The position numbers and the translations under genes are program-made. Below, piece by piece: positions 1 to 40,098 of a stretch of DNA of 64,000 nt. How positions within the stretch are numbered: position 1 is the stretch's first letter; every line of letters begins with the position of its first letter. The notes beneath the pieces were generated by a model, which saw only the letters and a program-made list of their open reading frames with translations, was not told where the DNA came from and ran no database searches. The DNA comes from Candidatus Doudnabacteria bacterium RIFCSPHIGHO2_02_FULL_43_13b. GTDB taxonomy: Bacteria; Patescibacteriota; Doudnabacteria; UBA920; O2-02-FULL-48-8. Location of the stretch: the NCBI GenBank assembly GCA_001777655.1, contig MFER01000013.1, forward strand, positions 2,619 through 66,618, written 5' to 3'.

Positions 1-39
1 GTTTGGAAACCCGATCTTCACCAAGCTTACCTGTACTCA

Positions 40-432
40 TCAACGTCGGCTAGGGATGTATTTGTTCCTCATCTGCTCGTGCTCGTATTCTTTTTTTTCT
101 TTGGCAAAATTGAAAATCAAATACTTCAAAATAAAGATCAACCACACTATCCCCATCAACCCGATTAATCCAACCCAGAACCTGCGGCTAAATAACGGGG
201 TATTTTCGTATCGAAACAAAAACCAAAATCCACCGCTGATGGCTAAAGTCAAGCTTAGGTGCCAAATTCTTTTCCAAATATTCTTGATTGTTTGATGCTT
301 CGCAAATCTGGCGATGACCAAAAAGATAATCGCCACCGCCAAACAGGCAGCAAAAAAATAACCTATGTAAAAATCGGTTTGATTTAAGATGGTTGAAGGT
401 TGTGAAAACCAAAAATAGTAATTAATAGGCAT
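40..432 (-). CDS. hypothetical integral membrane protein (several TM helices)
   Basis: 130 aa ORF with hydrophobic helices; no recognisable motif. Confidence 0.35.
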   Translation of the reverse strand: MPINYYFWFSQPSTILNQTDFYIGYFFAACLAVAIIFLVIARFAKHQTIKNIWKRIWHLSLTLAISGGFWFLFRYENTPLFSRRFWVGLIGLMGIVWLIFILKYLIFNFAKEKKEYEHEQMRNKYIPSRR

Positions 433-14508: not shown

Positions 14509-14585
14509 TGGTGGACGCGCTCAGATTCGAACTGAGGACCTTCTCGACGTCAACGAGACGCTCTAACCAGCTGAGCTACGCGTCC
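14509..14585 (-). tRNA. tRNA-Val (anticodon GAC)
   Basis: Reverse complement folds as GGACGCGTAGCTCAGCTGGTTAGAGC...anticodon loop TTGACGT...GGTTCGAATC...CCA. Confidence 0.75.
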
Positions 14586-17364: not shown

Positions 17365-17451
17365 TGGTGCCGGGGACAGGAGTTGAACCTGCACACCCTT
17401 TCGGGTACAAGGTCCTAAACCTTGCGTGTCTGCCAATTTCACCACCCCGGC
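17365..17451 (-). tRNA. tRNA-Leu (anticodon TAG), long variable arm
   Basis: Reverse complement GCCGGGGTGGTGAAATTGGCAGACACGCAAGGTTTAGGACCTTG...GGTTCAACTCC...CCA. Confidence 0.7.
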
Positions 17452-17525: not shown

Positions 17526-17783
17526 TTACTTATAGACTTCATGCGTCCCTACAGCATGAAAATATATTAATTCACTTGATGCAAGCTCAAAAACAATTCT
17601 GTGTTGATAGTCTATTGAAAAGGACCAAAAATCTCTTAGCCTGCCGGAAAGTTTATGAGTTTTAAGTTTAGGATCAAAAGGATTTTTACGAAATAACTTT
17701 TCTTTTTGTTCAGCAAGTGTTTTTATTTGTTGTGGCAGTTTCCGGTATTCCCTGGCGAATTTAGGAGAATAAACAATTTTCAT
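17526..17783 (-). CDS. RelE/ParE-family (YafQ-like) type II toxin
   Basis: 85 aa, ...DFWSFSIDYQHRIVFE...IYFHAVGTHEVY pattern; immediately downstream of RHH antitoxin. Confidence 0.6.
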   Translation of the reverse strand: MKIVYSPKFAREYRKLPQQIKTLAEQKEKLFRKNPFDPKLKTHKLSGRLRDFWSFSIDYQHRIVFELASSELIYFHAVGTHEVYK

Positions 17784-17784
17784 T

Positions 17785-18000
17785 TTACCTTAAATCCTTC
17801 AAACTCCGCAAAACCTTTCCACGGCCCCGAGCAATTTGCGTTTGGCTTTCTCGCAGCTCTTGTAATAATTGTTCTTCTTTCCAAAGCCTCATTAAATCTC
17901 GGACAAATTCACTTTTAGTCGCATACCCGCCTTTTTTTACAGCTTCCTCCACCTCTTTTTTTAAAACTTGCGGCATTGATATATTTATTATAGATCTCAT
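17785..18000 (-). CDS. ribbon-helix-helix (CopG/ParD-like) antitoxin
   Basis: 71 aa, KSEFVRDLMRLW RHH motif, 2-nt gap to toxin gene. Confidence 0.55.
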   Translation of the reverse strand: MRSIINISMPQVLKKEVEEAVKKGGYATKSEFVRDLMRLWKEEQLLQELRESQTQIARGRGKVLRSLKDLR

Positions 18001-18089: not shown

Positions 18090-18169
18090 TTGACAAAATC
18101 TTCAAAATCTGCTAGGATATGCTGTTTACATATTAATTTTGTCTTGCCAGAAGGACAGATATTATAATG
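18090..18169 (+). promoter_or_regulatory. two tandem sigma70-type promoters upstream of GC-island first gene
   Basis: TTGACA(18090-95)-17-TAGGAT and TTGTCT(18140-45)-18-TATAAT(18164-69); AAGGAAGG SD before ATG 18270. Confidence 0.45.
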
Positions 18170-18269: not shown

Positions 18270-19340
18270 ATGACAGAGGCCGCGCCAGACCCGGAGGCCA
18301 CTGGGCCCCCGGTGCCAGAACCCGCCAACCCAGGCAAGTGCCCGGGCTGCGGACAGCCGACTCAACCGACCGACGAGTTCTGCGGCCATTGTGGTATCGA
18401 GTTGATCGCCTCTTCTGTGCCGGCGGAAACCCCGCCGAACACAGATGATCCGCCGCTCGATCCCCCACGCGCCGAAGAACTCAAGTTACTCACCCTGCCC
18501 AAAACGCCGATCAACGTCTCGACGGCCGGTGCGACTCATGTCGGACTGGTCAAAGAGAACAACGAGGATACTATTTTTGTCACCGAGGTATCTTACCCGG
18601 TGCATAAAATCGCAGTCCACGTCATGATCGTCGCCGACGGCATGGGCGGAGAACCAGCTGGTGAAGTGTTCGGACAGATCGCGGCCTTGGAGACATGGCT
18701 GGGAATTCGCTGGCTGCTGCCCTTCGAGGAACAGCAACACGGATTTTCGCGCCTCGACTTCTGGCGCTTTCTGGACGGACAATTCACCAACCACCTACCA
18801 GCCCAAATTGCTGCGGCTAACTCGCGCATCCTTCGATACGCGAAAGCCAAGCAGTTGAAAGCCGGCCAGTGCGGCGCCACCATTGCGGTGGCTGTGGCAA
18901 TCTGCGACCTGGAAACAGGCCGCGTGAAAATCCACGGCTACAACGAAGGCGACGCCCGAGTGGGATTGGTCATTGACGGGAAGTTTCAGCTCCTGTCAAC
19001 AGATCAAACCATCTCGGGGTATCCGTTCCGGTTCTTGGGACGACACGAACACATCGGCGGAAACAAATTCAGCTGGGATGTTTGGATGAGTGAACAGCAA
19101 TTCCAATCCTTCTGGGTACTCGCGTACTCGGACGGGCTCTGGAACATGCTCTCGCCCGAACAGATCACCCAAGCCGCCGACTCAACCGCTGACCCCAAAT
19201 CGCTTTGCGACGTTCTGGTGGCCACCGCACTGACGGTGCGGGAACCACACGGACGAACGCTCGGCGACGAGAAGGTTACCACCGGAGATGACAACATCTC
19301 CATCACCACGTTCTACTGTCAAAAGGAGACCGACCGATGA
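18270..19340 (+). CDS. N-terminal C4 zinc-ribbon fused to PP2C-family Ser/Thr phosphatase
   Basis: CPGCG...CGHCG ribbon; PP2C motifs KENNEDT, VADGMGG, YSDGLWNML, DDNISITT; GC-rich. Confidence 0.75.
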   Translation: MTEAAPDPEATGPPVPEPANPGKCPGCGQPTQPTDEFCGHCGIELIASSVPAETPPNTDDPPLDPPRAEELKLLTLPKTPINVSTAGATHVGLVKENNEDTIFVTEVSYPVHKIAVHVMIVADGMGGEPAGEVFGQIAALETWLGIRWLLPFEEQQHGFSRLDFWRFLDGQFTNHLPAQIAAANSRILRYAKAKQLKAGQCGATIAVAVAICDLETGRVKIHGYNEGDARVGLVIDGKFQLLSTDQTISGYPFRFLGRHEHIGGNKFSWDVWMSEQQFQSFWVLAYSDGLWNMLSPEQITQAADSTADPKSLCDVLVATALTVREPHGRTLGDEKVTTGDDNISITTFYCQKETDR

Positions 19341-20617
19341 ACGTTCCACTGTCAGTCACTGTGCAGTCCCTGGTCGCGGCCATGCTGGCCAAGTCCGGGC
19401 TCCGTTCCCAGTTCCACCTCATGATCGAGGTGGGGCTTGGCAAGCTCGAACAGGCCATCAGCGCGGCCTGCGACTACGTGCTGCTCCTCGACGTTTCCGG
19501 CTCCATGAGCGGGATCGTCGGCGAGGTAAGCAAGCTCGATGCGCTCAAGGCGGCATGCGAAAACGTGATCAACCGATTCAACCCGGATGACCGCGTGAGC
19601 ATCATCGCCTTCGATGAACAACCCACCACGATGATGGCGCTCGCCAACTGCGACCACCGCGGCAAGACCGAGGCGATCAACACCGTCTACGGACTTGGTC
19701 TCGGCGGTGCCACCTGCTTCGCTTCGGCTCTGCTGGCGGCCAAGCAGCTGCTGCACGATTCCAGTCACAAGCGCGCCGTCTTGTTCTTCACCGACGGCGA
19801 AAACACCGGCGGCGGGGATCCCCTCCCTGTCGTGACCCAGATGCGCGAAGCCGGCATCACTCTCTACGCCGGCGGCCTGGGCGTCAACAACCAAGGCGAG
19901 CAGGTGCTCGACCAACTGGCGGGAGCCAACTTCCGCTCGCTTACCACCGCGGCCGATGTCGACGCGTTCCTCAAGGACGCGGCGGCGCAGGCAGCCGGAG
20001 CCATCGTCACCAACGCGCAACTTCGGCTGACCCCTGTGACGTTCGCCCAGGTCAACAACTTCGACCTGGTCGCACGGAACGGAACGCCGAACTACGCGCT
20101 CGCAGACAGCACGATGCGCCTCCTGCCCATCGGCGATCTGGCCGAAGGCGACCGCTACCAGGCCTACCTCGGCCTGAACATCGTTCTGCCCGAAGACATC
20201 CGGGCCGGACGGCGAGCGTTCGGCAAGGTTGAGGTCATCGGCGACGTCGTGGCCATGGGCATCAAAGGCCAGGTGCTGGCCCAAACCCCCATCGCAGTCA
20301 TGTTCGGCGACCAGGCGGTCGCCACGGTCAACTCGACCGTCAAGGACATGATCAACACAGCGGCGACTGCCCGCGAGCTCTACTTGGCGGGACAGGCGAC
20401 CAACACGGCGGACGCGGCGGCTCACGTGGCCAACGCGCGCAAGACCGCGGCGTTCTCCCAGGACGCTGTGGCCTCGGCACTGCGGGCACAGATGAGCACG
20501 ATCGAAGCCCAGATTGCCAAGGATCCCGACGCGGCGCAGAAGGCGGCGCGGCGGGCGACCCGCGGCTTCTCGGCTGAAGATGCGGCGGCGGCACTCCGGA
20601 ACCTGCGTCAGAGCTAG
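19337..20617 (+). CDS. von Willebrand factor A domain protein (TerY-like) with Ala-rich C-terminal region
   Basis: MIDAS DVSGSMSG, GGATCFASAL, FFTDGENTGG; start overlaps upstream stop (ATGA). Confidence 0.75.
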   Translation: MNVPLSVTVQSLVAAMLAKSGLRSQFHLMIEVGLGKLEQAISAACDYVLLLDVSGSMSGIVGEVSKLDALKAACENVINRFNPDDRVSIIAFDEQPTTMMALANCDHRGKTEAINTVYGLGLGGATCFASALLAAKQLLHDSSHKRAVLFFTDGENTGGGDPLPVVTQMREAGITLYAGGLGVNNQGEQVLDQLAGANFRSLTTAADVDAFLKDAAAQAAGAIVTNAQLRLTPVTFAQVNNFDLVARNGTPNYALADSTMRLLPIGDLAEGDRYQAYLGLNIVLPEDIRAGRRAFGKVEVIGDVVAMGIKGQVLAQTPIAVMFGDQAVATVNSTVKDMINTAATARELYLAGQATNTADAAAHVANARKTAAFSQDAVASALRAQMSTIEAQIAKDPDAAQKAARRATRGFSAEDAAAALRNLRQS

Positions 20618-20674
20618 TCTCTGGCGCAGGAGCAAGTTCACACGCGACTTCAACCCCTTTCAAGGAGATTCATC

Positions 20675-21100
20675 ATGGTCTGCCCAAACTGCTCTACCCC
20701 GGTTCCGACTGGCGAACAGTTCTGCCCCGGATGCGGCACGGAACTGACCAGCGCTGACCCCACCAACACGCCGACCCCGACTACCGATGCCAGCGCCAGC
20801 TCCCAGCCGGCACTCGCCACGCTCACGTACGGCGCGACCAACATCCCACTGCGCGAGGGCAGCAAGGTGATCATCGCGCGGGAAGGCACAGACAAGTGCA
20901 CGCCCGACCTGGCCATCAACTCCGATGGCGTCTCCTCGACTCCGGTCGAGGTCAGTGTCGAGAACGGTGTGATCACCGTTCGCGATACCGGCACGAGCGT
21001 CGGGATCCGGGTGGTCAAGTACATCAAGCCCGGCGGCTCGATGACGGTCGAGCCCGGCGACATGGTGATGCTCGGCAACGAGATCATCGCCGTCGGGTAA
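20675..21100 (+). CDS. zinc-ribbon plus FHA-like phosphopeptide-binding domain protein
   Basis: CPNCS...CPGCG ribbon, Pro/Thr linker, then TLTYG...IIAREG...PDLAIN...VSSTPVEV...NGVITVRDTGTSVGIRV FHA-like pattern. Confidence 0.55.
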   Translation: MVCPNCSTPVPTGEQFCPGCGTELTSADPTNTPTPTTDASASSQPALATLTYGATNIPLREGSKVIIAREGTDKCTPDLAINSDGVSSTPVEVSVENGVITVRDTGTSVGIRVVKYIKPGGSMTVEPGDMVMLGNEIIAVG

Positions 21101-21124
21101 GTAGTCTCTAGCTATTCGAGTTCC

Positions 21125-21180
21125 GAGAGAAGGCGCGAAGGAAACCCAAATTTCCTTCCCCTTCTCTCATTCTTTCTTTA
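21125..21180 (+). terminator. rho-independent terminator inside GC island
   Basis: GAGAGAAGG...CCTTCTCTC stem with nested GAAGGAAA/TTTCCTTC, followed by ATTCTTTCTTTA. Confidence 0.5.
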
Positions 21181-21285
21181 TTGAGAATGCTATGGAATTA
21201 AAAATTTGATTTCATGGCGGTCTCTGTAAAGACCACAGTTCTTTTCGTCAACAATCAAGCACATTCCGCCAGGAGGCGGATCATC

Positions 21286-23031
21286 ATGGACAAATACTGT
21301 CCGTCATGCAAGCTTGTCCTCCCACCAACCGCGAAGCGGTGTACTGCTTGCGGTAAGATCGCAACGCTCTCCCCCAACACCGTCGTCAACTCCGGCGCTG
21401 ATCGATACACCATTGACTCGGTGCTCGGCATCGGCGGCATGGGCATCGTCTACCGAGCGACTGACAGCTTCAGCTTGACTGCCGTGGTCAAGCAGCTGCA
21501 CGTTGACAACCCGGCCGATCTGCCGGATGCCCAGCGCCGCTTCAAGCGCGAAGCCCAAGTCCAGGCCGGACTCAATTCCCCCTTCTATCCGGCCGGCTAT
21601 GGCTACTTTGTGGACCAAAACCTCGAGTTCATGGCCATGGAGTTCGTGGCTGGCCGAGATCTCGAAAAAACCCTGACGACTTTGGGCGGCAAGATGAGCG
21701 AAGATGAGGTGTTGCGGCTAGGAATCCAGATTTGTGACGGACTATCAGTCCTGCACAACCACATTGACCCCGCCACCAACACACCGGAACCGCACGTTCA
21801 CCGTGACATCAAACCGGCCAACGTAATTCTCCGGCCGTCGGGCCAGATCTGCATTCTGGATCTGGGCATCGCGCGGACCCTGAATCAATCGGCCGGCACA
21901 CAGGTGCGCGCCACGCGCGCTGGCACGTTCGAATACGCCAGTCCGCAGCAGGTTTCGGGAACGGACATGTCAATCCGCGACGATATTTATTCGCTCGCGG
22001 CGACCCTGTTCCATCTCGTCACCGGAGCGCCGTTTACTGGGGACTTCACCCAGCGTGCGGCGGAAATCGACGCTCTGCCTCCCACCTGGCGTGCCGCCTT
22101 CCGACGGGCAATCCACAACGACACCAACTTACGGCAGCGCAGTGTCGATGAGTTCAAGACCGATCTCATCGCCCTGCTTCCGCCGCAGTTGCGACCCGCC
22201 CTACCTGCCCCCGCGGGAGCCCCCGCTCCGATCCCAGCCACTGGCTTTCTTTCCATCCGCTGGCGAGTGACCCTCCCCTACATGACCAACCCTAACGAAT
22301 GGGTGCAGTCGGTAGCGGGCCAGGTCATCCAAGGCACCGTCGGCATGCCGGGCGTAAACATCGTCCCGATCATGACCGATACCGGAGCCGGGGCGATGGC
22401 TCACAACACGCGCGGCGCTTCGGTCAACACCGGGCCTCACGGCGACTTCGGACTGAATCTGCCTGACGTGACCATTCCAGTCACGGTGGACAGGCGGCAG
22501 ATCATCGTCATCGTCGAGGACCCCAACTCTGGACAGGAGCTCTATCGGGAAACCGTGGAGCTCAATCGGCCCGGGGTGGCGCGTCGGATACAAGCCCGTG
22601 GTGGGGCGGGTGTCCGAGCGGCTGCTCATGCCGCAGCCGCGCCGTTTCAGGCAGTCGGGCATGCTATGGCAGCAGGCGCTCGTGGCCTCGGCCGCGGGAT
22701 CGCTTGGCCGTTTCAGAAGCTGTGGCAAGTCGGAACTGCGTTGACGGGAATCAAAACCGTCCTCGCAATCGCCGGCCTGTTCATGGCTGCCACGCTCGTC
22801 CTGGCCCGGCTCCAGCAGTCGATGCCGTTTGTGCTCTACATCTGGCCGCATACGTGGATTGCGGCGTTGGCTTCGGCCTTCGTTGCATTCCGGATGCGCA
22901 GACGTGGCGGCATCTTCACGGCGAAAGTCAAACAGCGATCGCTCGGCCAAGCGCTGCGAAGCCCTGTCCTTATTGCCACCGTCACGATGTGGGCGGCGGC
23001 AACGATCGGCTGGGTCTTCGGTCCGCACTAA
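21286..23031 (+). CDS. zinc-ribbon plus Hanks-type Ser/Thr protein kinase with C-terminal TM segments
   Basis: CPSCK...CTACG ribbon; GIGGMGIVY...VVK, HRDIKPANVIL, DLGIAR, SPQQ; AGGAGG SD before ATG 21286 (ORF-track start 21214 probably too early). Confidence 0.75.
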   Translation: MDKYCPSCKLVLPPTAKRCTACGKIATLSPNTVVNSGADRYTIDSVLGIGGMGIVYRATDSFSLTAVVKQLHVDNPADLPDAQRRFKREAQVQAGLNSPFYPAGYGYFVDQNLEFMAMEFVAGRDLEKTLTTLGGKMSEDEVLRLGIQICDGLSVLHNHIDPATNTPEPHVHRDIKPANVILRPSGQICILDLGIARTLNQSAGTQVRATRAGTFEYASPQQVSGTDMSIRDDIYSLAATLFHLVTGAPFTGDFTQRAAEIDALPPTWRAAFRRAIHNDTNLRQRSVDEFKTDLIALLPPQLRPALPAPAGAPAPIPATGFLSIRWRVTLPYMTNPNEWVQSVAGQVIQGTVGMPGVNIVPIMTDTGAGAMAHNTRGASVNTGPHGDFGLNLPDVTIPVTVDRRQIIVIVEDPNSGQELYRETVELNRPGVARRIQARGGAGVRAAAHAAAAPFQAVGHAMAAGARGLGRGIAWPFQKLWQVGTALTGIKTVLAIAGLFMAATLVLARLQQSMPFVLYIWPHTWIAALASAFVAFRMRRRGGIFTAKVKQRSLGQALRSPVLIATVTMWAAATIGWVFGPH

Positions 23032-23058
23032 AACACCAAGGAGGTGTTCGATAGGTTT

Positions 23059-23115
23059 CGGAGGGAAGTGTTCAGGTTTCAACCCTGACACTCCCCTCCA
23101 CCCTTTCTTTATAAA
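23059..23115 (+). terminator. rho-independent terminator inside GC island
   Basis: GGAGGGAAGTGT...ACACTCCCCTCC stem then T-rich tract. Confidence 0.5.
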
Positions 23116-23264
23116 TCTTTTAGCTCAAATTTTTAGTTCCAAAACTTGGAGCCAGAAACTTGGGCTCAAAAATCCCAAGACGGTTCTTTTGAATCAAATA
23201 GTTTAGTTCTAGTTGTTCGTTTCGTCAACCAGCTTCAGAGCCGCCTAGGTGCGGGAGGTGAGTC

Positions 23265-24122
23265 ATGGCAGAGAAAGGCAGAATCGTGAAGCTGAATCCG
23301 AAAGGGTTTGGCTTTGTCTCCCGCGCTGGCGGCCGAGACGTGTTCGTTCCATCCTTCGAGCTCCAACGAAGTAGGGCTGGGATGAATGATGAAGTGGAGT
23401 TCGAGGTTGGTCCTGACCCGAGAAATCCGGGAAAGGAAATGGCTTCGAGCCTGACGGTGGTTGCGAAAGCGGCCCCGTCAGCGCCACCAACGCCACTCGC
23501 ACTTGGGGTGGCGTGGAAATTCGGTACGGTCGTCAAGGGCTTCTTGCCCGTGATGATCGTGGTGATGCGCGGAAACGTCGCTGCGCTGGATCTGATAGTG
23601 AAGTTGATGGCTAATGGGAAGCGAGTTTCGAATCCCAAGGCCACGCTTTCACCGGACAGCGCCGGCACGGTGACGTTCGTGGTCGAGCTGGTGAAGGTGG
23701 GTCTGCCAATGGATGCCAACCAGTGCGTGCTGATGGCCCAAATCAACGGGCAGATCTACAGCACGCTTTGGGAAGCCGCCAAGGCACCCGCGCCAACGCC
23801 AGCCAAGCCGCCCGAGCCACCGAAAGTGGAGCGGCTCAACATCAGCACGGACCGGATTTACACCTACCGCGTAACTTTCGCCCCTGGGGTTGAAGTCAAT
23901 GTGGAAGGAGTGATTCCGATCCAGTTCCGCCAGCACGGCAAGATCAGCTGGTCCAACCAGCCGGTCCCTGCCGAGCCTGACGGCACGCTGATGGTCGAAG
24001 TGCAAGTCACCCAAGACGGCGCGCGTGGAGACGTGTTCTTCCTCGCTGCCGGTCTTCGTTCGAAACCCGAATACGTCACCCACGTCAATCCGCCGGTGCG
24101 ACCCGCACCGGCCAAGAAGTAG
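23265..24122 (+). CDS. hypothetical protein with N-terminal cold-shock/S1-like OB domain and Pro-rich segments
   Basis: GRIVKLNPKGFGFVSRAGGRDVFVP...EVEFEV resembles CSD; remainder unknown. Confidence 0.4.
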   Translation: MAEKGRIVKLNPKGFGFVSRAGGRDVFVPSFELQRSRAGMNDEVEFEVGPDPRNPGKEMASSLTVVAKAAPSAPPTPLALGVAWKFGTVVKGFLPVMIVVMRGNVAALDLIVKLMANGKRVSNPKATLSPDSAGTVTFVVELVKVGLPMDANQCVLMAQINGQIYSTLWEAAKAPAPTPAKPPEPPKVERLNISTDRIYTYRVTFAPGVEVNVEGVIPIQFRQHGKISWSNQPVPAEPDGTLMVEVQVTQDGARGDVFFLAAGLRSKPEYVTHVNPPVRPAPAKK

Positions 24123-24133
24123 GAGAACGAACA

Positions 24134-24772
24134 ATGGCAGACACACCGAAGGGCGGCAGTCATACCATCAAAGATTTTCTTTTTGATGGTTTCCGTGAGC
24201 TGTTCGTCACCCACGGCCTCCCCATGATGGTCAAACTGGCTAACCGAGCCAGTGAGACAAGACTTGCGGAGAGAGAGGGGCGGAAACGCAACAAGCACTA
24301 CTTCGCGGCCGCCATGGTCAAGCTTCGGCTGCGCGATGGTCGCGCCGCCGACGTGATCGGCGACTTTGTCGATCACTGGCTCAACACTGACGCTGACCGC
24401 GAGGATTTTCAACACAACGCGGCCTGTGTCGGCACGGACAAGGACGAGAAGATGGGCGACACGGTGGAATTCCTCTGGCAGCTGGCACATCTGCCTGATC
24501 ACGCCGCTCGTGAAGTCCATCTGACTGCTCTTGGCTTCATCGGCGCACGCAGCGTCGACATGGCTGAGAAGGCAGTGGAGTTGCTCAAGCGGGTTCGTGA
24601 CGAGGTCAAGGACCTGCCGGCTGATGCCAAGAAGAAATTGAACGAAGGCACCAAGGCACTGCGGGAACTCAACAACAAGCAGTGGATGCAGAATGCCGAG
24701 AAGTCCTCGGCAGCATTCAGACAGACAGCAGCCACCCGGCTGACGGGCTACAGAGCTCGCCGGCGTTCGTAG
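24134..24772 (+). CDS. hypothetical protein
   Basis: 212 aa GC-rich ORF with SD (GTAGGAGAA) at correct spacing; no motif recognised. Confidence 0.35.
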   Translation: MADTPKGGSHTIKDFLFDGFRELFVTHGLPMMVKLANRASETRLAEREGRKRNKHYFAAAMVKLRLRDGRAADVIGDFVDHWLNTDADREDFQHNAACVGTDKDEKMGDTVEFLWQLAHLPDHAAREVHLTALGFIGARSVDMAEKAVELLKRVRDEVKDLPADAKKKLNEGTKALRELNNKQWMQNAEKSSAAFRQTAATRLTGYRARRRS

Positions 24773-24783
24773 GAGAGACTCAC

Positions 24784-25635
24784 ATGATCACGATCCTTGG
24801 AATTCTCATCTACGGGCTGATTGTCTGGTGCTTGTTCAGTCCGCGCGTTCGCAACCAGGTCCGCGACGTCCTCGTCGGGGCCTGGGACTACCTGCAACTG
24901 GGTGGCCTCAGCGCCTACGACGCTGCGGTCGCTTTCCTCTACGGGCTCATCGTGCTCGTGGTGGTGGACATCGTGGTCCTAATCATCGCAGTGGCGATCG
25001 GCATCCCCGGGATCTTGGTTGCCTTCTTCGTCACCAACGCGCTGCTGTGGTTCGTGCCGATGTATGTGCTGTGGCTTCTGCATCTGCCAGTGGCAGCGGC
25101 AGGGGCCCAGATCAGGTGGTTGGGAACAAAATTGGGGTCCGTCCCACTCTTGTTTTTCCCATTTTTCCCAGTCCGACTGATCGGCCGGTGTGTTCACGCA
25201 GTTGGCACGATCGTCGTGCTCTCGGCAGCGCTGGCGCGCTGGATGACCGGGTTGCTGGTGCAAGTCACTCTCATCTCCTTGCTTCTGTCAGGGCTGGCCC
25301 TGCTGGACTTGGAGATGGGATGGCACATCGTCAATCCGTTCACCATGACGATGGCGGGACTGCTGTGGATGACGATCACATCACTGCAGATCTTCCGCCA
25401 AACCCACCCGGGTTCTGTCGGAATCAAAATCCTGGGGCGGGCGGCAATCGGTGTACTACTCGCGGTCGGAGTAGTCCACTACTGGCCGCTTTGGAAAAGT
25501 GTCGGGCTCAGCGTTCTGAGCTTCGATTTCGGCGATGAGGAAATGATGTTTCGAGGCCTCATCGTCGTGGCGCTGCTGGCGGCTCTCGTCGTTGGCCTGC
25601 GCACTCGCAGCTCATCATCAACAACCGCTCGCTGA
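24784..25635 (+). CDS. hypothetical polytopic membrane protein
   Basis: TAGGAGAG SD then ATG 24784 (MITILGILIYG...); 7-8 hydrophobic helices. Confidence 0.45.
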   Translation: MITILGILIYGLIVWCLFSPRVRNQVRDVLVGAWDYLQLGGLSAYDAAVAFLYGLIVLVVVDIVVLIIAVAIGIPGILVAFFVTNALLWFVPMYVLWLLHLPVAAAGAQIRWLGTKLGSVPLLFFPFFPVRLIGRCVHAVGTIVVLSAALARWMTGLLVQVTLISLLLSGLALLDLEMGWHIVNPFTMTMAGLLWMTITSLQIFRQTHPGSVGIKILGRAAIGVLLAVGVVHYWPLWKSVGLSVLSFDFGDEEMMFRGLIVVALLAALVVGLRTRSSSSTTAR

Positions 25636-25647
25636 GGAGACACGGAC

Positions 25648-26436
25648 ATGAAAAAAGTGCTAATCAGCGTCGCGACGTTCGTGTTCATCCTCGCAGCGGG
25701 ATCTGGGGTTGGCTTGCTGTGGACCAGTTTCTTCCCGCCGGAAGAGCGGGGGGTCAGGGTTGCCACGACTGATGCCAACGGAATGGTCAAAGCGCACGCA
25801 GGTGACGCCAAGACCATTCTCAAGCAAACCGGCTTCCGCGGCGGCAACGGCCGGGTCAGCGTGACGATGTTTAAGGACACCAGAACACCGGTGTCTATGG
25901 ATATCGCCAATGCCAGGCAAGCTCGCGACGAGCAAATCGCCATTGCTCGCGGCGGGTTCCTGCCAGCGCCGGATCGGTTCCTCGAAGGCTACACCCACGA
26001 CTGGGTGAGCAGCGGGATTCCGGTCTACACCTGCACGCACGTTACGGCAGCGGGTAGGATCACTCGAGATCCCATCACCGCTGCCGGGCCAGACGGCATC
26101 AATCTGGATGCCATGAATGCAGAAACGCGCAGCGCGTTTGTGCAAGAACATGGCGACAGGGCCAAGGTGCTCCCTGGGGTTCCCTGGGGAACGTTCATCG
26201 GCAAAGTCTGCGCAGACGCTGGCGGGAACAGCTGTCAAACGCCGTTCCCAATCGGCCAAAGCGCGTACCTGTCGGCTGAGCGGGTCGGTGCAGGGACGTT
26301 GTGGATCTGGACCAACGGTTTCGTAGCCCAATCAAGTACGGGGCTGTTGAATCGTTCGGACTTCAACGTCTATCAGGGCGGCTTCCGGTTCGAGCACGAG
26401 GCCGCGCCTGAATACAAGTGTAAGGGGGGGTTCTAG
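25648..26436 (+). CDS. hypothetical secreted protein
   Basis: Signal peptide MKKVLISVATFVFILAAGSG; GAGGAG SD. Confidence 0.4.
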   Translation: MKKVLISVATFVFILAAGSGVGLLWTSFFPPEERGVRVATTDANGMVKAHAGDAKTILKQTGFRGGNGRVSVTMFKDTRTPVSMDIANARQARDEQIAIARGGFLPAPDRFLEGYTHDWVSSGIPVYTCTHVTAAGRITRDPITAAGPDGINLDAMNAETRSAFVQEHGDRAKVLPGVPWGTFIGKVCADAGGNSCQTPFPIGQSAYLSAERVGAGTLWIWTNGFVAQSSTGLLNRSDFNVYQGGFRFEHEAAPEYKCKGGF

Positions 26437-26473
26437 TCCGTCGGCAGGTTCGCTTGCCAGCGGAGCAACACCG

Positions 26474-26520
26474 GGGTGTTGGGAAGACCACAAATCTTCT
26501 CACACCCCGCTTTTTTATTT
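26474..26520 (+). terminator. rho-independent terminator
   Basis: GGGGTGT...ACACCCC stem followed by GCTTTTTTATTTT. Confidence 0.5.
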
Positions 26521-26572
26521 TGCGAAGCAAAATACCCCGACCTTTAGCGTCGGGGTCATAAATATCAATGCC

Positions 26573-26601
26573 TTGACTTTTTGTAGCTTTTTTGATATTA
26601 T
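26573..26601 (+). promoter_or_regulatory. sigma70-type promoter for last island gene
   Basis: TTGACT-17-TATTAT, then AAGGAGGG SD 7 nt before ATG 26691. Confidence 0.4.
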
Positions 26602-26690
26602 ACTTCGTCGCATTCATCATTTCTTTTTTCGCGACATTTATACGATACGTTCAATTCGCACACTCTCAAGTCCAAGGAGGGACTTTACCA

Positions 26691-27685
26691 TGAAGCGCGC
26701 TCTACTCGTCGCTCTCGTTTTCGTCGCACTGGGCATGCCAGCAATGGCTGCTCAGACGCCACCCTCACCGATTTTCGAGCAAAAGCTCGAGGCGGTGGCG
26801 GTGAAAACTGTTACTTCGGTTCCCGTGCTTCTCGCGGAGATCGCGAAGAAGCACCAGCTCCAAGTCTCGATCGACGAAAAACTGGACATGGATCGGATGT
26901 ATTTGGGCGAAGTCCCGGCTGGGACGCTGAAAAGCCAGATCGAATTTCTGGCCAAGCAGTGGGACGGCAGCGCAAGTTTGGTCGGAGGCGACTCGGTCGT
27001 CATCCTCTCGACCAAGTCTTTGCCCACCAAGGCCAAGGAGACCCCGACCGCAACCACGCCGCCACCCACCACGCCCCCCCAACCCCTGCCACAGCAAACG
27101 ACAGTTGCCCGGTTGCCCTACCCATCACTGTCGGCCGCAGTAATGTCCGACAGCATGCTACCGATAACCGGGCCCACCTGGATGGACCTTCGGATGCAAG
27201 AATACAACGCCTGGGCAGAAGCCAACCAGGCATACCGAACATTCCGGTCCGCCCAGCCGTACTACTTCGGGGCTGACCAGGTCTATTCGGACGCGTACTA
27301 CCAAGGCGGGTACGGCGGTGGACTCATGTGGGGCAATCAGTTGCTCCGAATCAAAGGAGCCGCCACCCACGGCTACCTAAAAATAAACGCCATCGGCGAC
27401 ACGAAGTTTATCAAGTACGTCGTGGTGCTGCGACAGGACACGGACGGCGTTTGGATTACGGAGGGCTCCGCTGGAAAGTCCTTCCGAGATTTTCACGAGC
27501 CGATCGAGCTACCCGTCGGACGGTGGCGACTGCGGTTTGAGCTACGGAGGGATGGAGTGACCAAGTACTTGGAAGAGGTGTTTAACATCGAATCCAAGTA
27601 CGATCTATTCCATCCCAAGCAGTACGCCATTTCGGAAGAAATGATGAGAAGCTTTGGTACAACCGAAGCTATCATCAGGCGCTGA
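26691..27685 (+). CDS. hypothetical secreted protein with Pro/Thr-rich linker
   Basis: Signal peptide MKRALLVALVFVALGMPAMAAQ; TPTATTPPPTTPPQPLPQQTT linker; ORF-track start 26573 is upstream read-through. Confidence 0.45.
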
Positions 27686-27699
27686 CGGCGACGCTGAAA

Positions 27700-27745
27700 A
27701 CGCCAAAGGCCGACACCCTCCGGGTGTCGGCCTCTTTTTTTATAT
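27700..27745. terminator. bidirectional hairpin terminator at right edge of GC island / end of pilin array
   Basis: GGCCGACACCCTCCGGGTGTCGGCC perfect stem flanked by A-run and T-run. Confidence 0.55.
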
Positions 27746-39570: not shown

Positions 39571-40098
39571 ATGAAATGCCCATATTGTGCGGAGGAGATT
39601 CAAAACGAAGCTAAAATTTGCAAGCATTGCAAAAGTAATTTGGTGAATCCTGCCAACAATCCTTCATTGTCAGTAGACAAGCCAAAAAGGATTTTGCATC
39701 AAAAGTTGGGAACGGGAAGCTGTTTAATTTTATTCTCGGCTATTTTTTTCATAATAATAGTTTCAGTTGCAGTTATGTCTCTAGGCGGAAATGAATCCTC
39801 TTCGGTTTCCACTCCCCAGCAATCCACGGTAGACTTCGCCAAGGTTGAAAAAGCGATGGAAGATTTAACCAAGGCGGGACTGGTCAAGAAAACAGACCCA
39901 AGCCTAAACCAGGTCTATGTAAGCAAGCCATATTGGGATGCCCAGGACATTGAAGCCAAGGAAACCGCCGCAAAAGCCTTTGCCTACTATGTCGGCTACA
40001 AGAAGGGAACCAACCTTTACTGGGTGGACATTTATGATTGGCAATCAGGCAAGCGATTAGCAAAATACAGCGAATCTTGGGGCTTCACGGTTTATTAG
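39571..40098 (+). CDS. zinc-ribbon membrane-anchored protein with extracytoplasmic domain
   Basis: CPYCAEE...CKHCKSN ribbon, one TM helix, 100-aa C-terminal domain. Confidence 0.4.
   Translation: MKCPYCAEEIQNEAKICKHCKSNLVNPANNPSLSVDKPKRILHQKLGTGSCLILFSAIFFIIIVSVAVMSLGGNESSSVSTPQQSTVDFAKVEKAMEDLTKAGLVKKTDPSLNQVYVSKPYWDAQDIEAKETAAKAFAYYVGYKKGTNLYWVDIYDWQSGKRLAKYSESWGFTVY

Follow-up and report, generated by a model that had tools for sequence, protein, structure and literature searches.

Zinc ribbons on the kinase, phosphatase and FHA reader of a Doudnabacteria-type cassette with an ArnB-like vWA protein

Sulfolobus ArnA consists of a zinc finger (ZnF), a linker and an FHA domain, and its zinc finger has been co-crystallised docked on the vWA protein ArnB (PDB 8S05; PMC12852372). 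The contacts on ArnB are the beta1-beta2 loop, alpha5 and the helical domain, and a phosphorylated threonine in the same helical domain is the ligand of the ArnA FHA domain (PMC12852372, PMC6509490). PP2A, a phosphatase of Sulfolobus, co-purifies with ArnA/ArnB (bioRxiv 10.64898/2026.08.11.744115). Deinococcus has operons of vWA, TM-kinase, FHA and PP2C genes, and an OxyR mutant shows induction of its vWA/FHA operon (bioRxiv 10.64898/2026.01.23.701218). Actinobacteria combine a zinc ribbon (ZnR) kinase and a PP2C with a standalone vWA protein, and Kaur et al. described membrane-proximal systems whose ZnR-kinases carry beta-rich domains or TM helices (PMC7159879).

The region described here lies in a 64-kb window (the whole stretch of DNA that was analysed) and forms the signalling core of a conserved cassette of 8-9 genes in a Candidatus Doudnabacteria-type (CPR/Patescibacteria) genome. 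All features of the cassette given below, including the kinase, PP2C and FHA protein ORFs, are on the + strand. The cassette has the structure of an operon: two sigma-70-like promoter matches (TTGACA-17-TAGGAT and TTGTCT-18-TATAAT; consensus matches only) lie upstream at 18090..18168, the PP2C stop codon overlaps the vWA ATG (ATGA), and a strong intrinsic terminator with a 12-bp stem and a T-run (27707..27733) ends the GC-rich cassette. The GC content was strikingly high compared with that of the host genome.

The PP2C/PPM Ser/Thr phosphatase (18270..19340; 356 aa) was made up of a Pro-rich leader, a zinc ribbon, a Pro-rich linker and a PP2C domain at about residues 89-350 (NCBIfam Stp1_PP2C, E 1.9e-18; Pfam PP2C, E 1.7e-5). 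Its metal-binding motifs (NED98, DGMGG123, SDG287 and DDN340) were intact, strongly supporting a phosphatase that looks active. The Hanks-type Ser/Thr kinase (21286..23031; Pfam Pkinase, E 8e-29) has 581 aa from the preferred start, ATG 21286, which is more likely than 21214 because AGGAGG stands 7 nt upstream. Its zinc ribbon, linker and kinase domain were followed by a beta-rich middle region and C-terminal hydrophobic, TM-like helices at about residues 482-510 and 560-579. Motifs GIGGMG48, VVK69, HRDIKPAN172 and DLG192 were present, and an active-looking kinase, apparently anchored by these helices, is likewise strongly supported.

The third ribbon protein (20675..21100; 141 aa) is an ArnA-like reader with a zinc ribbon, a T/P/A-rich linker and a divergent FHA domain (residues 48-141). 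Since a Pfam search gave no FHA match for this protein, the FHA identity proposed by the sequence-only reading was established from structure prediction, which bore it out. In the AF2 model (pLDDT 74; linker below 50 and disordered), the best 50 Foldseek matches in the PDB were all FHA domains; OdhI/GarA matched at E 4e-4 and the ArnA FHA domain stood at rank 40, and the sequence profile gave weak FHA matches (1uht, E 0.023). R69 and S87 were invariant, whereas the canonical His (Pro90 in its place) and the Asn of the SxxH/NG motifs were absent. The predicted structure thus strongly supports a ZnR-linker-FHA reader of ArnA architecture.

Between the phosphatase and the reader lies an ArnB-like vWA protein (19337..20617; 426 aa), identified by Pfam VWA (E 5e-19), an AF2 model (pLDDT 83) and Foldseek. 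It was laid out as beta1/beta2, a MIDAS-bearing vWA domain, a beta-sandwich (222-324) and a helical C-terminal domain (333-424), and its MIDAS residues (D52-x-S54-x-S56, T126, D153) were invariant. The only full-length PDB matches of the model were 4fx5 (1.3e-24), ArnB 8s05_A (2.6e-21; TM 0.65/0.71) and ArnE 5a8j (1.3e-17). [quoted passage not shown] The likeness to ArnB was structural only (14% identity), and the sequence-profile match to ArnB (E 6e-5) was confined to the vWA domain.

Among the 11-mers of the vWA protein, conservation was highest at the beta1-beta2 loop and at the motifs around T408 and T370, and all three persisted at about 30% overall identity. The T408 window (400-410) was the most conserved, with a score of 0.93, and covers R-R-A-T408-x-G-F (20549..20569), an invariant T-x-x-F that was also present in the loci L018, L024 and L025. 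The beta1-beta2 window (18-28) was second, with a score of 0.91. The loop, together with the beginning of beta2 (residues 12-28, ...AMLAKSGLRSQFHL; 19370..19420), forms a candidate ribbon-docking surface, and the A-K-P-G/FHL motif was retained in cassettes of only 29-32% identity. By analogy, the loop would correspond in position to the ArnB loop that contacts the ArnA zinc finger (PMC12852372); a comparison with ArnB and 4fx5 found no sequence similarity in it. In the helical domain, A-R-K-T370-x-x-F (20435..20455) is a candidate phospho-acceptor and FHA ligand; R368, K369, T370 and F373 were invariant, and the motif was retained as T-x-x-[FM] in distant cassettes.

The sequence-only reading had given the phosphatase, FHA protein and kinase a similar N-terminal four-cysteine ribbon, each followed by a Pro/Thr/Ala-rich linker. 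ORFs, a six-frame scan and Pfam confirmed the ribbon on all three as C-P-x-C-x10-C-x-x-C-G: CPGC-x10-CGHCG in PP2C (residues 24-42, CPGCGQPTQPTDEFCGHCG; 18339..18395), CPNC-x10-CPGCG in the FHA protein (residues 3-21, CPNCSTPVPTGEQFCPGCG; 20681..20737), and CPSC-x10-CTACG, a distinct subtype, in the kinase (residues 5-23 counted from start 21286, CPSCKLVLPPTAKRCTACG; 21298..21354). Their position at the very N-terminus held for the FHA protein and for the kinase from start 21286, but the PP2C ribbon followed a 23-residue Pro-rich leader. Similarly, the linker was as described in PP2C (about 43 aa, 9 Pro) and the FHA protein (23 aa, T/S/A/P-rich), but not in the kinase, where 17 conserved residues (ATL[AS]PG), not Pro/Thr/Ala-rich, led straight into the Gly-rich loop.

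A search of all six reading frames across the 64-kb window for stop-free C..C-x(6-20)-C..C gave four matches, three being these ribbons and the fourth, at 39577, belonging to an unrelated host protein with a ribbon and TM segment (39571-40098). Three of the four motifs in the window thus fell within four adjacent genes, which is far beyond chance. Pfam placed all three ribbons in Zn_Ribbon_1/DZR; against a gathering score of 25, Zn_Ribbon_1 scored 31.3 bits for the FHA protein, and the ribbons of PP2C (19.5 bits; Zn_Ribbon_1/Zn_ribbon_3/DZR, E about 1e-3) and the kinase (14.7 bits) scored below it. Since hhalign matched the PP2C/FHA ribbon profile to the kinase ribbon profile with 96% probability, the ribbons belong to one Pfam family or clan and not to unrelated families. 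Within it, the PP2C and FHA ribbons formed one subtype, [DE]x FC xx CG TEL, with 35% non-Cys identity, whereas the kinase ribbon formed a separate one, R-C-T-x-C-G, with 18-21% non-Cys identity to the other two. The second-best PDB match of the PP2C/FHA profile was the ArnA zinc finger (5a8i/8s05_C, E 9e-4), which has the same CxxC-x10-CxxC spacing and acidic-x-F-C pattern; the kinase ribbon profile gave no match to it. The shared recruitment or co-assembly module proposed by the sequence-only reading is partly supported, the PP2C and FHA ribbons being of one ArnA-like subtype and the kinase ribbon of another.

Conservation of the cysteine pairs in homologous cassettes had been set beforehand as a test, and the pairs were kept. 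All three ribbons persisted across about 15 related metagenomic cassettes, in which vWA identity fell from 77% to about 28%. Among the first eight orthologous loci, the motif was retained in PP2C (6 of 6 complete genes), the FHA protein (8 of 8) and the kinase (7 of 8, the eighth keeping four Cys with an insertion). The distant locus L018 had an FHA ribbon without the fourth Cys, and L024 a Cys3His-like kinase ribbon.

With a ribbon on kinase, phosphatase and reader and an ArnB-like vWA protein adjoining them, the cassette most probably represents a bacterial version of the threonine-phosphorylation switch known from archaea as ArnA/ArnB. The likeness lies in the vWA fold, the ZnR-linker-FHA layout and the PP2C/FHA ribbon profile; unlike in the archaeal system, writer and eraser share the operon and are tagged like the reader. 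Because PF13240-type ribbons are promiscuous, their presence on three proteins could nevertheless reflect a general property and not a shared partner. The ribbons would then be generic caps, independently acquired or retained, serving folding and stability or contacting their own catalytic domains. Zn_Ribbon_1/DZR modules are extremely common at N-termini, as the fourth ribbon of the window and the N-terminally ribboned PP2C family PRK14559 (NCBIfam) illustrate, and the ZnR-FHA profile alone retrieved 2,940 cluster representatives, of which many carry 3-19 ribbons in tandem. The kinase ribbon, being of a different subtype on a rigid linker, could be an N-lobe cap. We consider this explanation unlikely, in that the three ribbons were retained, with freely varying linkers, at identities as low as about 30%, the PP2C and FHA ribbons resembled each other about as closely as PP2C ribbons do among themselves (34% non-Cys identity), and the closest characterised ribbon, the ArnA zinc finger, docks on an equivalent vWA partner (PMC12852372).

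The downstream genes bear on two further explanations. The product of g5 (23265..24122) had an N-terminal cold-shock/OB-like domain (Pfam CSD, 6e-5; NCBIfam retron Se72 effector, 9e-6; PADLOC CSD_V, 6e-7; all under curated cut-offs), and related cassettes had a gene of variable length at this position, with weak homologues in L007, L012 and L014 and a weak CSD in L024. Pfam, NCBIfam and PADLOC gave no family match for g6 (24134..24772; 212 aa), of which L007 contains a stretch 42% identical, or for g8 (25648..26436; 262 aa), which has an N-terminal signal/anchor. Gene g7 (24784..25635; 283 aa) encodes a polytopic membrane protein with multiple hydrophobic segments, as does its position in L007, L009, L010, L018, L019, L024 and L025, and g9 (26690..27685) a secreted protein of 331 aa with its own promoter-like site (26573-26601).

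It is quite unlikely that the ribbons assemble the three proteins mutually or at the membrane, through ribbon-ribbon contacts, the kinase beta-rich domain or g7, and not on the vWA protein. The C-terminal hydrophobic helices of the kinase, the conserved polytopic g7 and the membrane-proximal ZnR-kinases of Kaur et al. (PMC7159879) would fit such an arrangement. However, the strongly conserved surface loop of the vWA protein is dispensable for MIDAS and fold. Heteromerisation of PF13240 ribbons is, to our knowledge, without precedent, which also counts against it, and the ArnA precedent favours the vWA protein (PMC12852372).

The sequence-only reading had also suggested docking to nucleic acid, which would link the phospho-module to RNA or DNA with the CSD/OB-fold protein; nothing in the locus spoke for it beyond that CSD-like gene, and we regard it as very improbable. 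Ribbons of the RanBP2 type and related ones are able to bind ssRNA (cited in PMC6509490), and DNA binding has been proposed for ArnA/ArnB (PMC10470591), but it was not found in the 2026 ArnAB study, which shows the zinc finger occupied by ArnB (PMC12852372). Moreover, the PP2C and FHA ribbons are D/E-rich and net negative and therefore unfavourable for binding, and the CSD matches of g5 stayed under curated thresholds. A role of the Cys4 sites as redox or zinc sensors, switching kinase, phosphatase and reader jointly in response to oxidative stress or metal status, is hardly credible: zinc sites of the Cys4 type are capable of redox switching and the Deinococcus operon responds in the OxyR mutant, but the cassette itself yielded no specific evidence for such a role, and the conserved non-Cys residues of the second hairpin (TEL, the F preceding Cys3 and the G following Cys4) suggest a protein interface and not only a metal site.

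An Arn-like writer, eraser and reader acting on the vWA scaffold, with the ribbons as putative docking tags, is the reading we favour, at about even confidence. The kinase would phosphorylate T370 and T408, the invariant threonines of the two [RK]-x-T-x-x-F motifs in the vWA helical domain, the FHA domain, which keeps its phosphate-binding Arg and Ser, would clamp onto pT-x-x-F, and PP2C would reset the switch. By analogy with the ArnA zinc finger at the ArnB beta-sandwich/helical-domain junction, the Cys4 ribbons would be phosphorylation-independent docking tags that keep the enzymes near their common substrate. On their long flexible linkers, the ribbons of PP2C and the FHA protein probably share one site and may be competitors for it; the proposed site is the highly conserved beta1-beta2 loop region. 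The kinase ribbon, rigidly coupled to the N-lobe, probably contacts another surface or has a direct part in positioning the substrate; with its separate subtype and short rigid linker, a single docking mechanism for all three is not established. The output of the switch would probably fall on the products of g5-g9, the membrane, secreted and OB-fold proteins conserved along with it.

We found that three of the first four genes of the cassette, which comprises nine genes in the ORF listing (18270-27685, forward strand), encode the N-terminal motif C-P-x-C-x10-C-x-x-C-G. This upheld the sequence-only reading, in which the phosphatase, the FHA protein, and the kinase had been said to share a four-cysteine zinc ribbon (18339-18395, 20681-20737, and 21298-21354 respectively, all on the forward strand). 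When all six frames of the window were scanned for C..C-x(6-20)-C..C, only four matches came back, three of which were the cassette ribbons. The fourth was located in a 175-aa protein of host-like GC content (39571-40098, forward strand), MKCPYCAEEIQNEAKICKHC, followed by a TM helix; this protein was unrelated to the cassette and belonged to a common type of ribbon plus membrane anchor without the terminal CG. Pfam placed all three cassette ribbons in Zn_Ribbon_1 (PF13240)/DZR with 31.3 bits for the FHA protein, 19.5 for the PP2C, and 14.7 for the kinase, so that at a gathering threshold of 25 bits for PF13240 the FHA protein alone exceeded it. PF13240 was also present in the precomputed annotation of several PP2C orthologues.

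The PP2C and FHA ribbons followed one consensus, M-x-C-P-N-C-x-T-x-N-x-x-G-E-Q-F-C-x-x-C-G-T-E-L, in which the F ahead of the third Cys and the G behind the fourth were invariant, and their non-Cys identity to each other (0.35) equaled the level among PP2C ribbons themselves (0.34). The kinase ribbon had the consensus C-P-x-C-S-I-x-L-P-x-T-A-x-R-C-T-x-C-G-N-x-A-T-L-A-P-G and a non-Cys identity of only 0.18-0.21 to the other two. Aligned with hhalign, the PP2C/FHA ribbon profile matched the kinase ribbon profile at a probability of 96%, a score resting largely on the Cys/Gly skeleton. Based on these sequences, the three ribbons belong to a single family that splits into two subtypes, PP2C/FHA and kinase. 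When the PP2C/FHA ribbon profile was searched against the PDB, the second-best match was the finger of the archaeal protein ArnA (KCNLCGYENDDDALFCIKCG, E 9e-4); the kinase ribbon profile did not find the ArnA finger in the PDB. The best match of the PP2C/FHA profile was 9sfa_A (E 2e-7), namely a ribbon at the C-terminus (residues 355-379) of a 'putative regulatory protein' 386 aa long. The further claim, that a low-complexity Pro/Thr/Ala linker follows each ribbon, stood for the PP2C (43 aa, 9 Pro) and the small FHA protein (23 aa, rich in T/S/A/P) and failed for the kinase, in which a conserved 17-aa ATL[AS]PG linker leads from the ribbon to the Gly-rich loop.

The PP2C gene (18270-19340) is followed by the vWA gene (19337-20617), the stop codon of the former overlapping the ATG of the latter, and the gene of the 141-aa ZnR-FHA protein (20675-21100) lies immediately downstream of the vWA gene. 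The Ser/Thr kinase ORF runs from 21214, with a likelier start at 21286 that has AGGAGG 7 nt upstream; all four genes are on the forward strand. The catalytic motifs of the kinase (GIGGMG48, VVK69, HRDIKPAN172-179, and DLG192; Pkinase E 8e-29) and the metal-coordinating Asp motifs of the PP2C (NED98, DGMGG123, SDG287, and DDN340) were complete, and judging from these motifs both catalytic domains look active. The PP2C matched NCBIfam Stp1_PP2C at E 1.9e-18, yet under the equivalog cut-off. Five further forward-strand genes travel with the signalling module and encode an OB-fold-like protein (g5, 23265-24122), a 212-aa protein (g6, 24134-24772), a polytopic membrane protein (g7, 24784-25635), and two exported proteins (g8, 25648-26436, and g9, 26690-27685). 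Searches of g5-g9 and ten orthologues against Pfam, NCBIfam, and PADLOC gave nothing past a weak CSD and Big_1 hint. The N-terminus of g5 carried a weak cold-shock/OB-fold signature, with a central hydrophobic stretch after it; its weak matches (Pfam CSD and S1CSD-TOTE-2, NCBIfam retron Se72 effector, PADLOC CSD_V) were all under curated thresholds, and its orthologues varied in length between 222 and 514 aa. Antisense to the vWA gene, a shadow ORF of 433 aa covers it (19352-20653, reverse strand). In some public gene calls on the identical sequence (contigs L001 and L004), shadow or alternative-frame ORFs replace vWA, g7, and g8, so that database annotation of the cassette is partly wrong.

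The families ahead of a steep fall in score were small, with 16 clusters for the vWA protein, 23 for the PP2C, and 11 for the small protein, and about 15 distinct cassettes of the same gene order were collected from related metagenomic contigs (L007, L009/L016, L010, L012-L015, L018-L020, L024, and L025). The ZnF-FHA gene was next to the vWA gene, in the same order, in all related loci. Among the first eight orthologous loci, the PP2C ribbon had four Cys in all six complete genes (with a CxC first knuckle in two), the FHA-protein ribbon was retained in 8/8 (with a spacing of 8 in one), and the kinase ribbon in 7/8, the eighth having four Cys and an insertion in the second knuckle. Knuckle length varied among orthologues (CxC, Cx4C, Cx8C) and four Cys were present in nearly all. 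The PP2C bore a double ribbon in L018 and L025; a Cx4C first knuckle occurred in the L024 PP2C and the L025 kinase, a Cys3His-like ribbon on the L024 kinase, and, in one case (L018), a degenerate FHA ribbon without the fourth Cys. Since the ribbons stayed on all three proteins in cassettes of only ~28-39% identity, the conservation of the Cys pairs in homologous cassettes held. Identical proteins carried the name of a Candidatus Doudnabacteria MAG, and apart from that name no cultured or named relative came to light. Scans of GTDB species genomes, one with the vWA and one with the ZnR-FHA alignment, returned no relatives, and tblastn of the vWA protein against plasmids returned generic vWA domains only, with unrelated neighbourhoods in Nostoc and Deinococcus deserti.

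The most serious alternative to a common docking partner is that the ribbons are generic and promiscuous, because ZnR-FHA proteins are abundant: the ZnR-FHA profile matched 2,940 representatives, many with tandem ribbons, and ribbon-bearing PP2Cs and kinases were already known. Many distant relatives matched by this profile (representatives P0076, P0085, P0086, and others) carried this ribbon type in tandem arrays of 3-19 copies, a number of them with a terminal FHA domain, and their sequences suggest multivalent versions of the same tag. Cyanobacterial proteins of the FraH type likewise consist of a (double) zinc ribbon, a Pro-rich linker, and a C-terminal FHA domain. The small protein shares with these and other multi-ribbon FHA proteins the order of ribbon, low-complexity linker, and C-terminal FHA domain. 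Unlike the FraH type, however, it has a single ribbon, a compact length of 141 aa, and a very divergent FHA domain, and it is always paired with genes for an ArnB-like vWA protein and ribbon-tagged PP2C and kinase. A literature search on FraH and zinc ribbons found no usable description. We also considered that the ribbons assemble on the kinase or a membrane complex, that they bind nucleic acid, and that they serve as redox or zinc sensors.

Against Pfam, the small protein had no PF00498 match at E<0.1, and a profile of ten homologues gave only weak FHA matches in the PDB (1uht at E 0.023; also GarA and MDC1). The AF2 model (pLDDT 74) had a ribbon at ~80, a linker below 50, and a domain at 80-90. 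In a Foldseek search of this model against the PDB, the top 50 hits were all FHA domains with TM (target) of 0.6-0.7, led by OdhI/GarA (E 4e-4) and with the ArnA FHA domain at rank 40; the predicted domain has the eleven-stranded beta-sandwich of the FHA fold. The phosphate-binding Arg (beta3-beta4) and Ser (beta4-beta5) corresponded to R69 and S87, which were invariant in the 10 homologues and aligned with the GR and S of 1uht. The canonical SxxH His was replaced by an invariant Pro90, and the position of the NG Asn was variable. We conclude that the domain is a divergent FHA domain, which, going by these residues, has probably retained phosphothreonine binding.

The MIDAS of the vWA protein was intact, with D52, S54, S56, T126, and D153 all invariant. 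[quoted passage not shown] By Foldseek, the only full-length PDB matches of the model were 4FX5, an actinobacterial vWA protein (E 1.3e-24), ArnB 8S05 (8s05_A/B; E 2.6e-21, TM 0.65/0.71), and ArnE 5A8J (E 1.3e-17), and Sec23/24 matched at E 1e-11 to 1e-12. A sequence-level ArnB orthologue was rejected: the vWA sequence profile matched ArnB 8s05_A at E 5.9e-5, in a stretch confined to the vWA domain and less strongly than it matched many unrelated vWA domains, and a profile of the N-terminal loop had no sequence match to ArnB or 4fx5. The vWA protein is therefore an analogue or distant homologue of ArnB, and not its orthologue.

The most informative conserved 11-mers of the vWA protein were 400-410 AQKAARRATRG(F), 18-28 AKSGLRSQFHL, and 363-373 HVANARKTAAF, of which 18-28 is the beta1-beta2 loop, modelled at low confidence. 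T370 and T408 were invariant with F at +3, and both this T-x-x-F pattern and the A-K-P-G/FHL loop motif survived in cassettes of only 29-32% overall identity. T-x-x-hydrophobic is the classical form of an FHA ligand. On the strength of these conserved motifs we therefore propose T370 and T408 as candidate phospho-acceptors and the beta1-beta2 loop, which has no sequence similarity to that of ArnB, as a candidate ribbon-docking surface.

The whole nine-gene cassette (18270-27690) was foreign in composition to its surroundings, which comprise RNase III, FtsH, a RelE/RHH pair, tRNAs, and a T4SS_pilin array: GC was 57-65% vs ~42% in the flanks, and GC3 was 0.69-0.86 vs 0.24-0.48. The internal spacers at 21101-21285 and 26440-26690 were AT-rich and host-like. 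An assembly chimera behind this jump was rejected because no fewer than 20 contigs, drawn from independent assemblies (ENA, Logan, and JGI), showed the same junctions. The GC and GC3 excess over the flanks was found in every related cassette examined (L007, L009, L010, L018, L019, L024, and L025); candidate explanations for the lasting GC3 excess are repeated lateral replacement at one site and selection. A recently integrated island was likewise rejected: neither an integrase nor att-like direct repeats were present, the tRNA-Leu(tag) (17365-17451, reverse strand) is 800 bp upstream with the toxin-antitoxin pair between, a repeat of the tRNA end sought at the far side of the cassette was not found, and in four diverged genomes the cassette occupied the identical site, with RNase III/FtsH on one side and the T4SS-pilin array on the other. 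The pair directly upstream, at 17526-18000, encodes an 85-aa RelE/YafQ-like toxin and a 71-aa RHH antitoxin, and a tRNA-Val is farther upstream (14509-14585), all on the reverse strand; at a comparable position L007 had a PIN/PhdYeFM pair. The FtsH orthologue of L007 (3064-6264, reverse strand; 1066 aa) contained an intein (Intein_splicing and a faint LAGLIDADG match). When L009 and L024 were compared, their FtsH and RNase III were similarly close to those of the window (63-67%), whereas the cassette proteins were at 49-62% vs 29-41%. Cassette divergence was thus out of step with host divergence, which suggests either that the cassette was replaced at a single site or that evolutionary rates were very uneven.

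The closest known counterpart is the Arn system of Sulfolobus acidocaldarius, in which neighbouring genes encode ArnB and ArnA, the latter composed of a Cys4 zinc finger, a disordered linker, and an FHA domain, and ArnC phosphorylates ArnB threonines in the C-terminal helical domain, to which the ArnA FHA domain then binds (PMC6509490). In a 2026 co-crystal the ArnA zinc finger was docked on ArnB; the finger (Cys 21, 24, 35, and 38, the x2/x10/x2 spacing of the cassette ribbons) uses chiefly its second hairpin to touch three parts of ArnB, namely helix alpha5, the helical domain, and the beta1-beta2 loop (PMC12852372). The phosphatase PP2A is co-purified with both Arn proteins, and archaella and pili are under the control of this network (bioRxiv 10.64898/2026.08.11.744115). 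The cassette and ArnA/ArnB (kinases ArnC/ArnD, phosphatase PP2A; PDB 5A8I, 5A8J, and 8S05) have in common adjacent genes for a ZnF(CxxC-x10-CxxC)-disordered linker-FHA and a split-sandwich vWA protein, a ribbon sequence type, Thr sites in the helical domain (candidate sites in the cassette), and an accompanying kinase and phosphatase, which in the cassette would act on this pair. The cassette differs in being bacterial (CPR) instead of archaeal, in the ~14% identity of its vWA protein to ArnB, in a kinase and PP2C (not PP2A) that lie in the same operon and themselves bear ribbons, in a more divergent FHA domain (His to Pro), and in the five further conserved membrane, secreted, and OB-fold genes that follow.

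The T4SS_pilin (PF18895) paralogue array begins immediately downstream, from 27761 onward on the reverse strand (repeat 27807-27923/28180-28296), and this adjacency was conserved in L007, L009, and L024. By analogy to ArnAB/PP2A, it is possible that the adjacency reflects control of surface filaments; it may also be plain synteny. The ArnAB authors regard their complex as an archaeal counterpart of the Sec23/24 core. The Sec23/Sec24 COPII core combines a zinc finger, a vWA-like trunk, a beta-sandwich, and a helical domain, as does the cassette ensemble, but its zinc finger is fused in cis, whereas in the cassette up to three partners would supply it in trans, and there is no gelsolin domain.

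Other known systems have similar parts. In the PpkA-PppA-Fha1 T6SS threonine-phosphorylation pathway, a single switch is built from a PP2C, an FHA reader, and a Hanks kinase together with a vWA domain, which is carried by PpkA; this vWA is a periplasmic domain of the kinase, ribbons are missing, and T6SS genes are present, whereas the cassette has no vWA on the kinase and no T6SS genes, and its membership in the pathway was rejected. Deinococcus radiodurans DRA0331-DRA0334 have the same four functional parts as the cassette, with DRA0333 termed a FraH orthologue, but the phosphatase has a KI-FHA domain instead of a ribbon, and that paper nowhere mentions a ribbon ('zinc' has 0 occurrences; bioRxiv 10.64898/2026.01.23.701218). 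As in bacterial vWA/STPK/FHA/PP2C operons, the cassette kinase has C-terminal TM helices. The actinobacterial GAP1-N2 theme shares a ZnR-kinase, a PP2C, and a standalone vWA protein with the cassette but is tied to DO-GTPase/GAP1 genes (Kaur et al. 2020, PMC7159879); no GTPase or GAP1 family matched the nine cassette proteins or ten g5/g6 orthologues, and membership in these systems was likewise rejected. A known anti-phage defence system was dismissed, since PADLOC gave generic kinase-domain matches and a weak CSD_V only.

In the mechanism we propose, the kinase would be anchored in the membrane by its C-terminal helices, with its ribbon rigidly joined to the N-lobe, and would phosphorylate the helical domain of the vWA protein. 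The reader, tethered beforehand by its ribbon, would then clamp on through the FHA domain. The PP2C, tethered by the reader's ribbon type on a long Pro-rich linker, would return the switch to its starting state, and reader and PP2C may be rivals for the docking site. A farther-reaching reading is a shared address code: the Cys4 tags would dock writer, eraser, and reader in trans on one Sec23/24-core-like vWA scaffold, and competition between phosphatase and reader for one site would give a self-contained, possibly bistable phospho-switch over the adjacent membrane and secreted proteins, perhaps the T4SS-pilin array, paralleling ArnAB/PP2A control of archaella and pili. We regard this reading as rather improbable.

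ZnR-FHA, ZnR-kinase, and ZnR-PP2C proteins and operons of vWA, FHA, kinase, and PP2C are already known singly. In the literature we found no description of ribbons on PP2C, FHA protein, and kinase together beside an ArnB-like scaffold, nor of such a module in CPR bacteria. Addressing to one scaffold by a shared small domain is usually linked to eukaryotic signalling scaffolds. Should the ribbons prove to be docking tags, the cassette would be a compact natural case in which one small domain sends writer, eraser, and reader alike to a common scaffold. A function would also be gained for some of the N-terminal PF13240 ribbons on bacterial signalling proteins, a very large class that is mostly unexplained. 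The ArnA/ArnB mechanism, whose structure dates only from 2025-26, would then reach from Crenarchaeota to CPR bacteria. The address code, if true, would show a route from a trans-docking tag to the cis zinc finger of Sec23/24 and would carry the Arn paradigm over to ultra-small bacteria.
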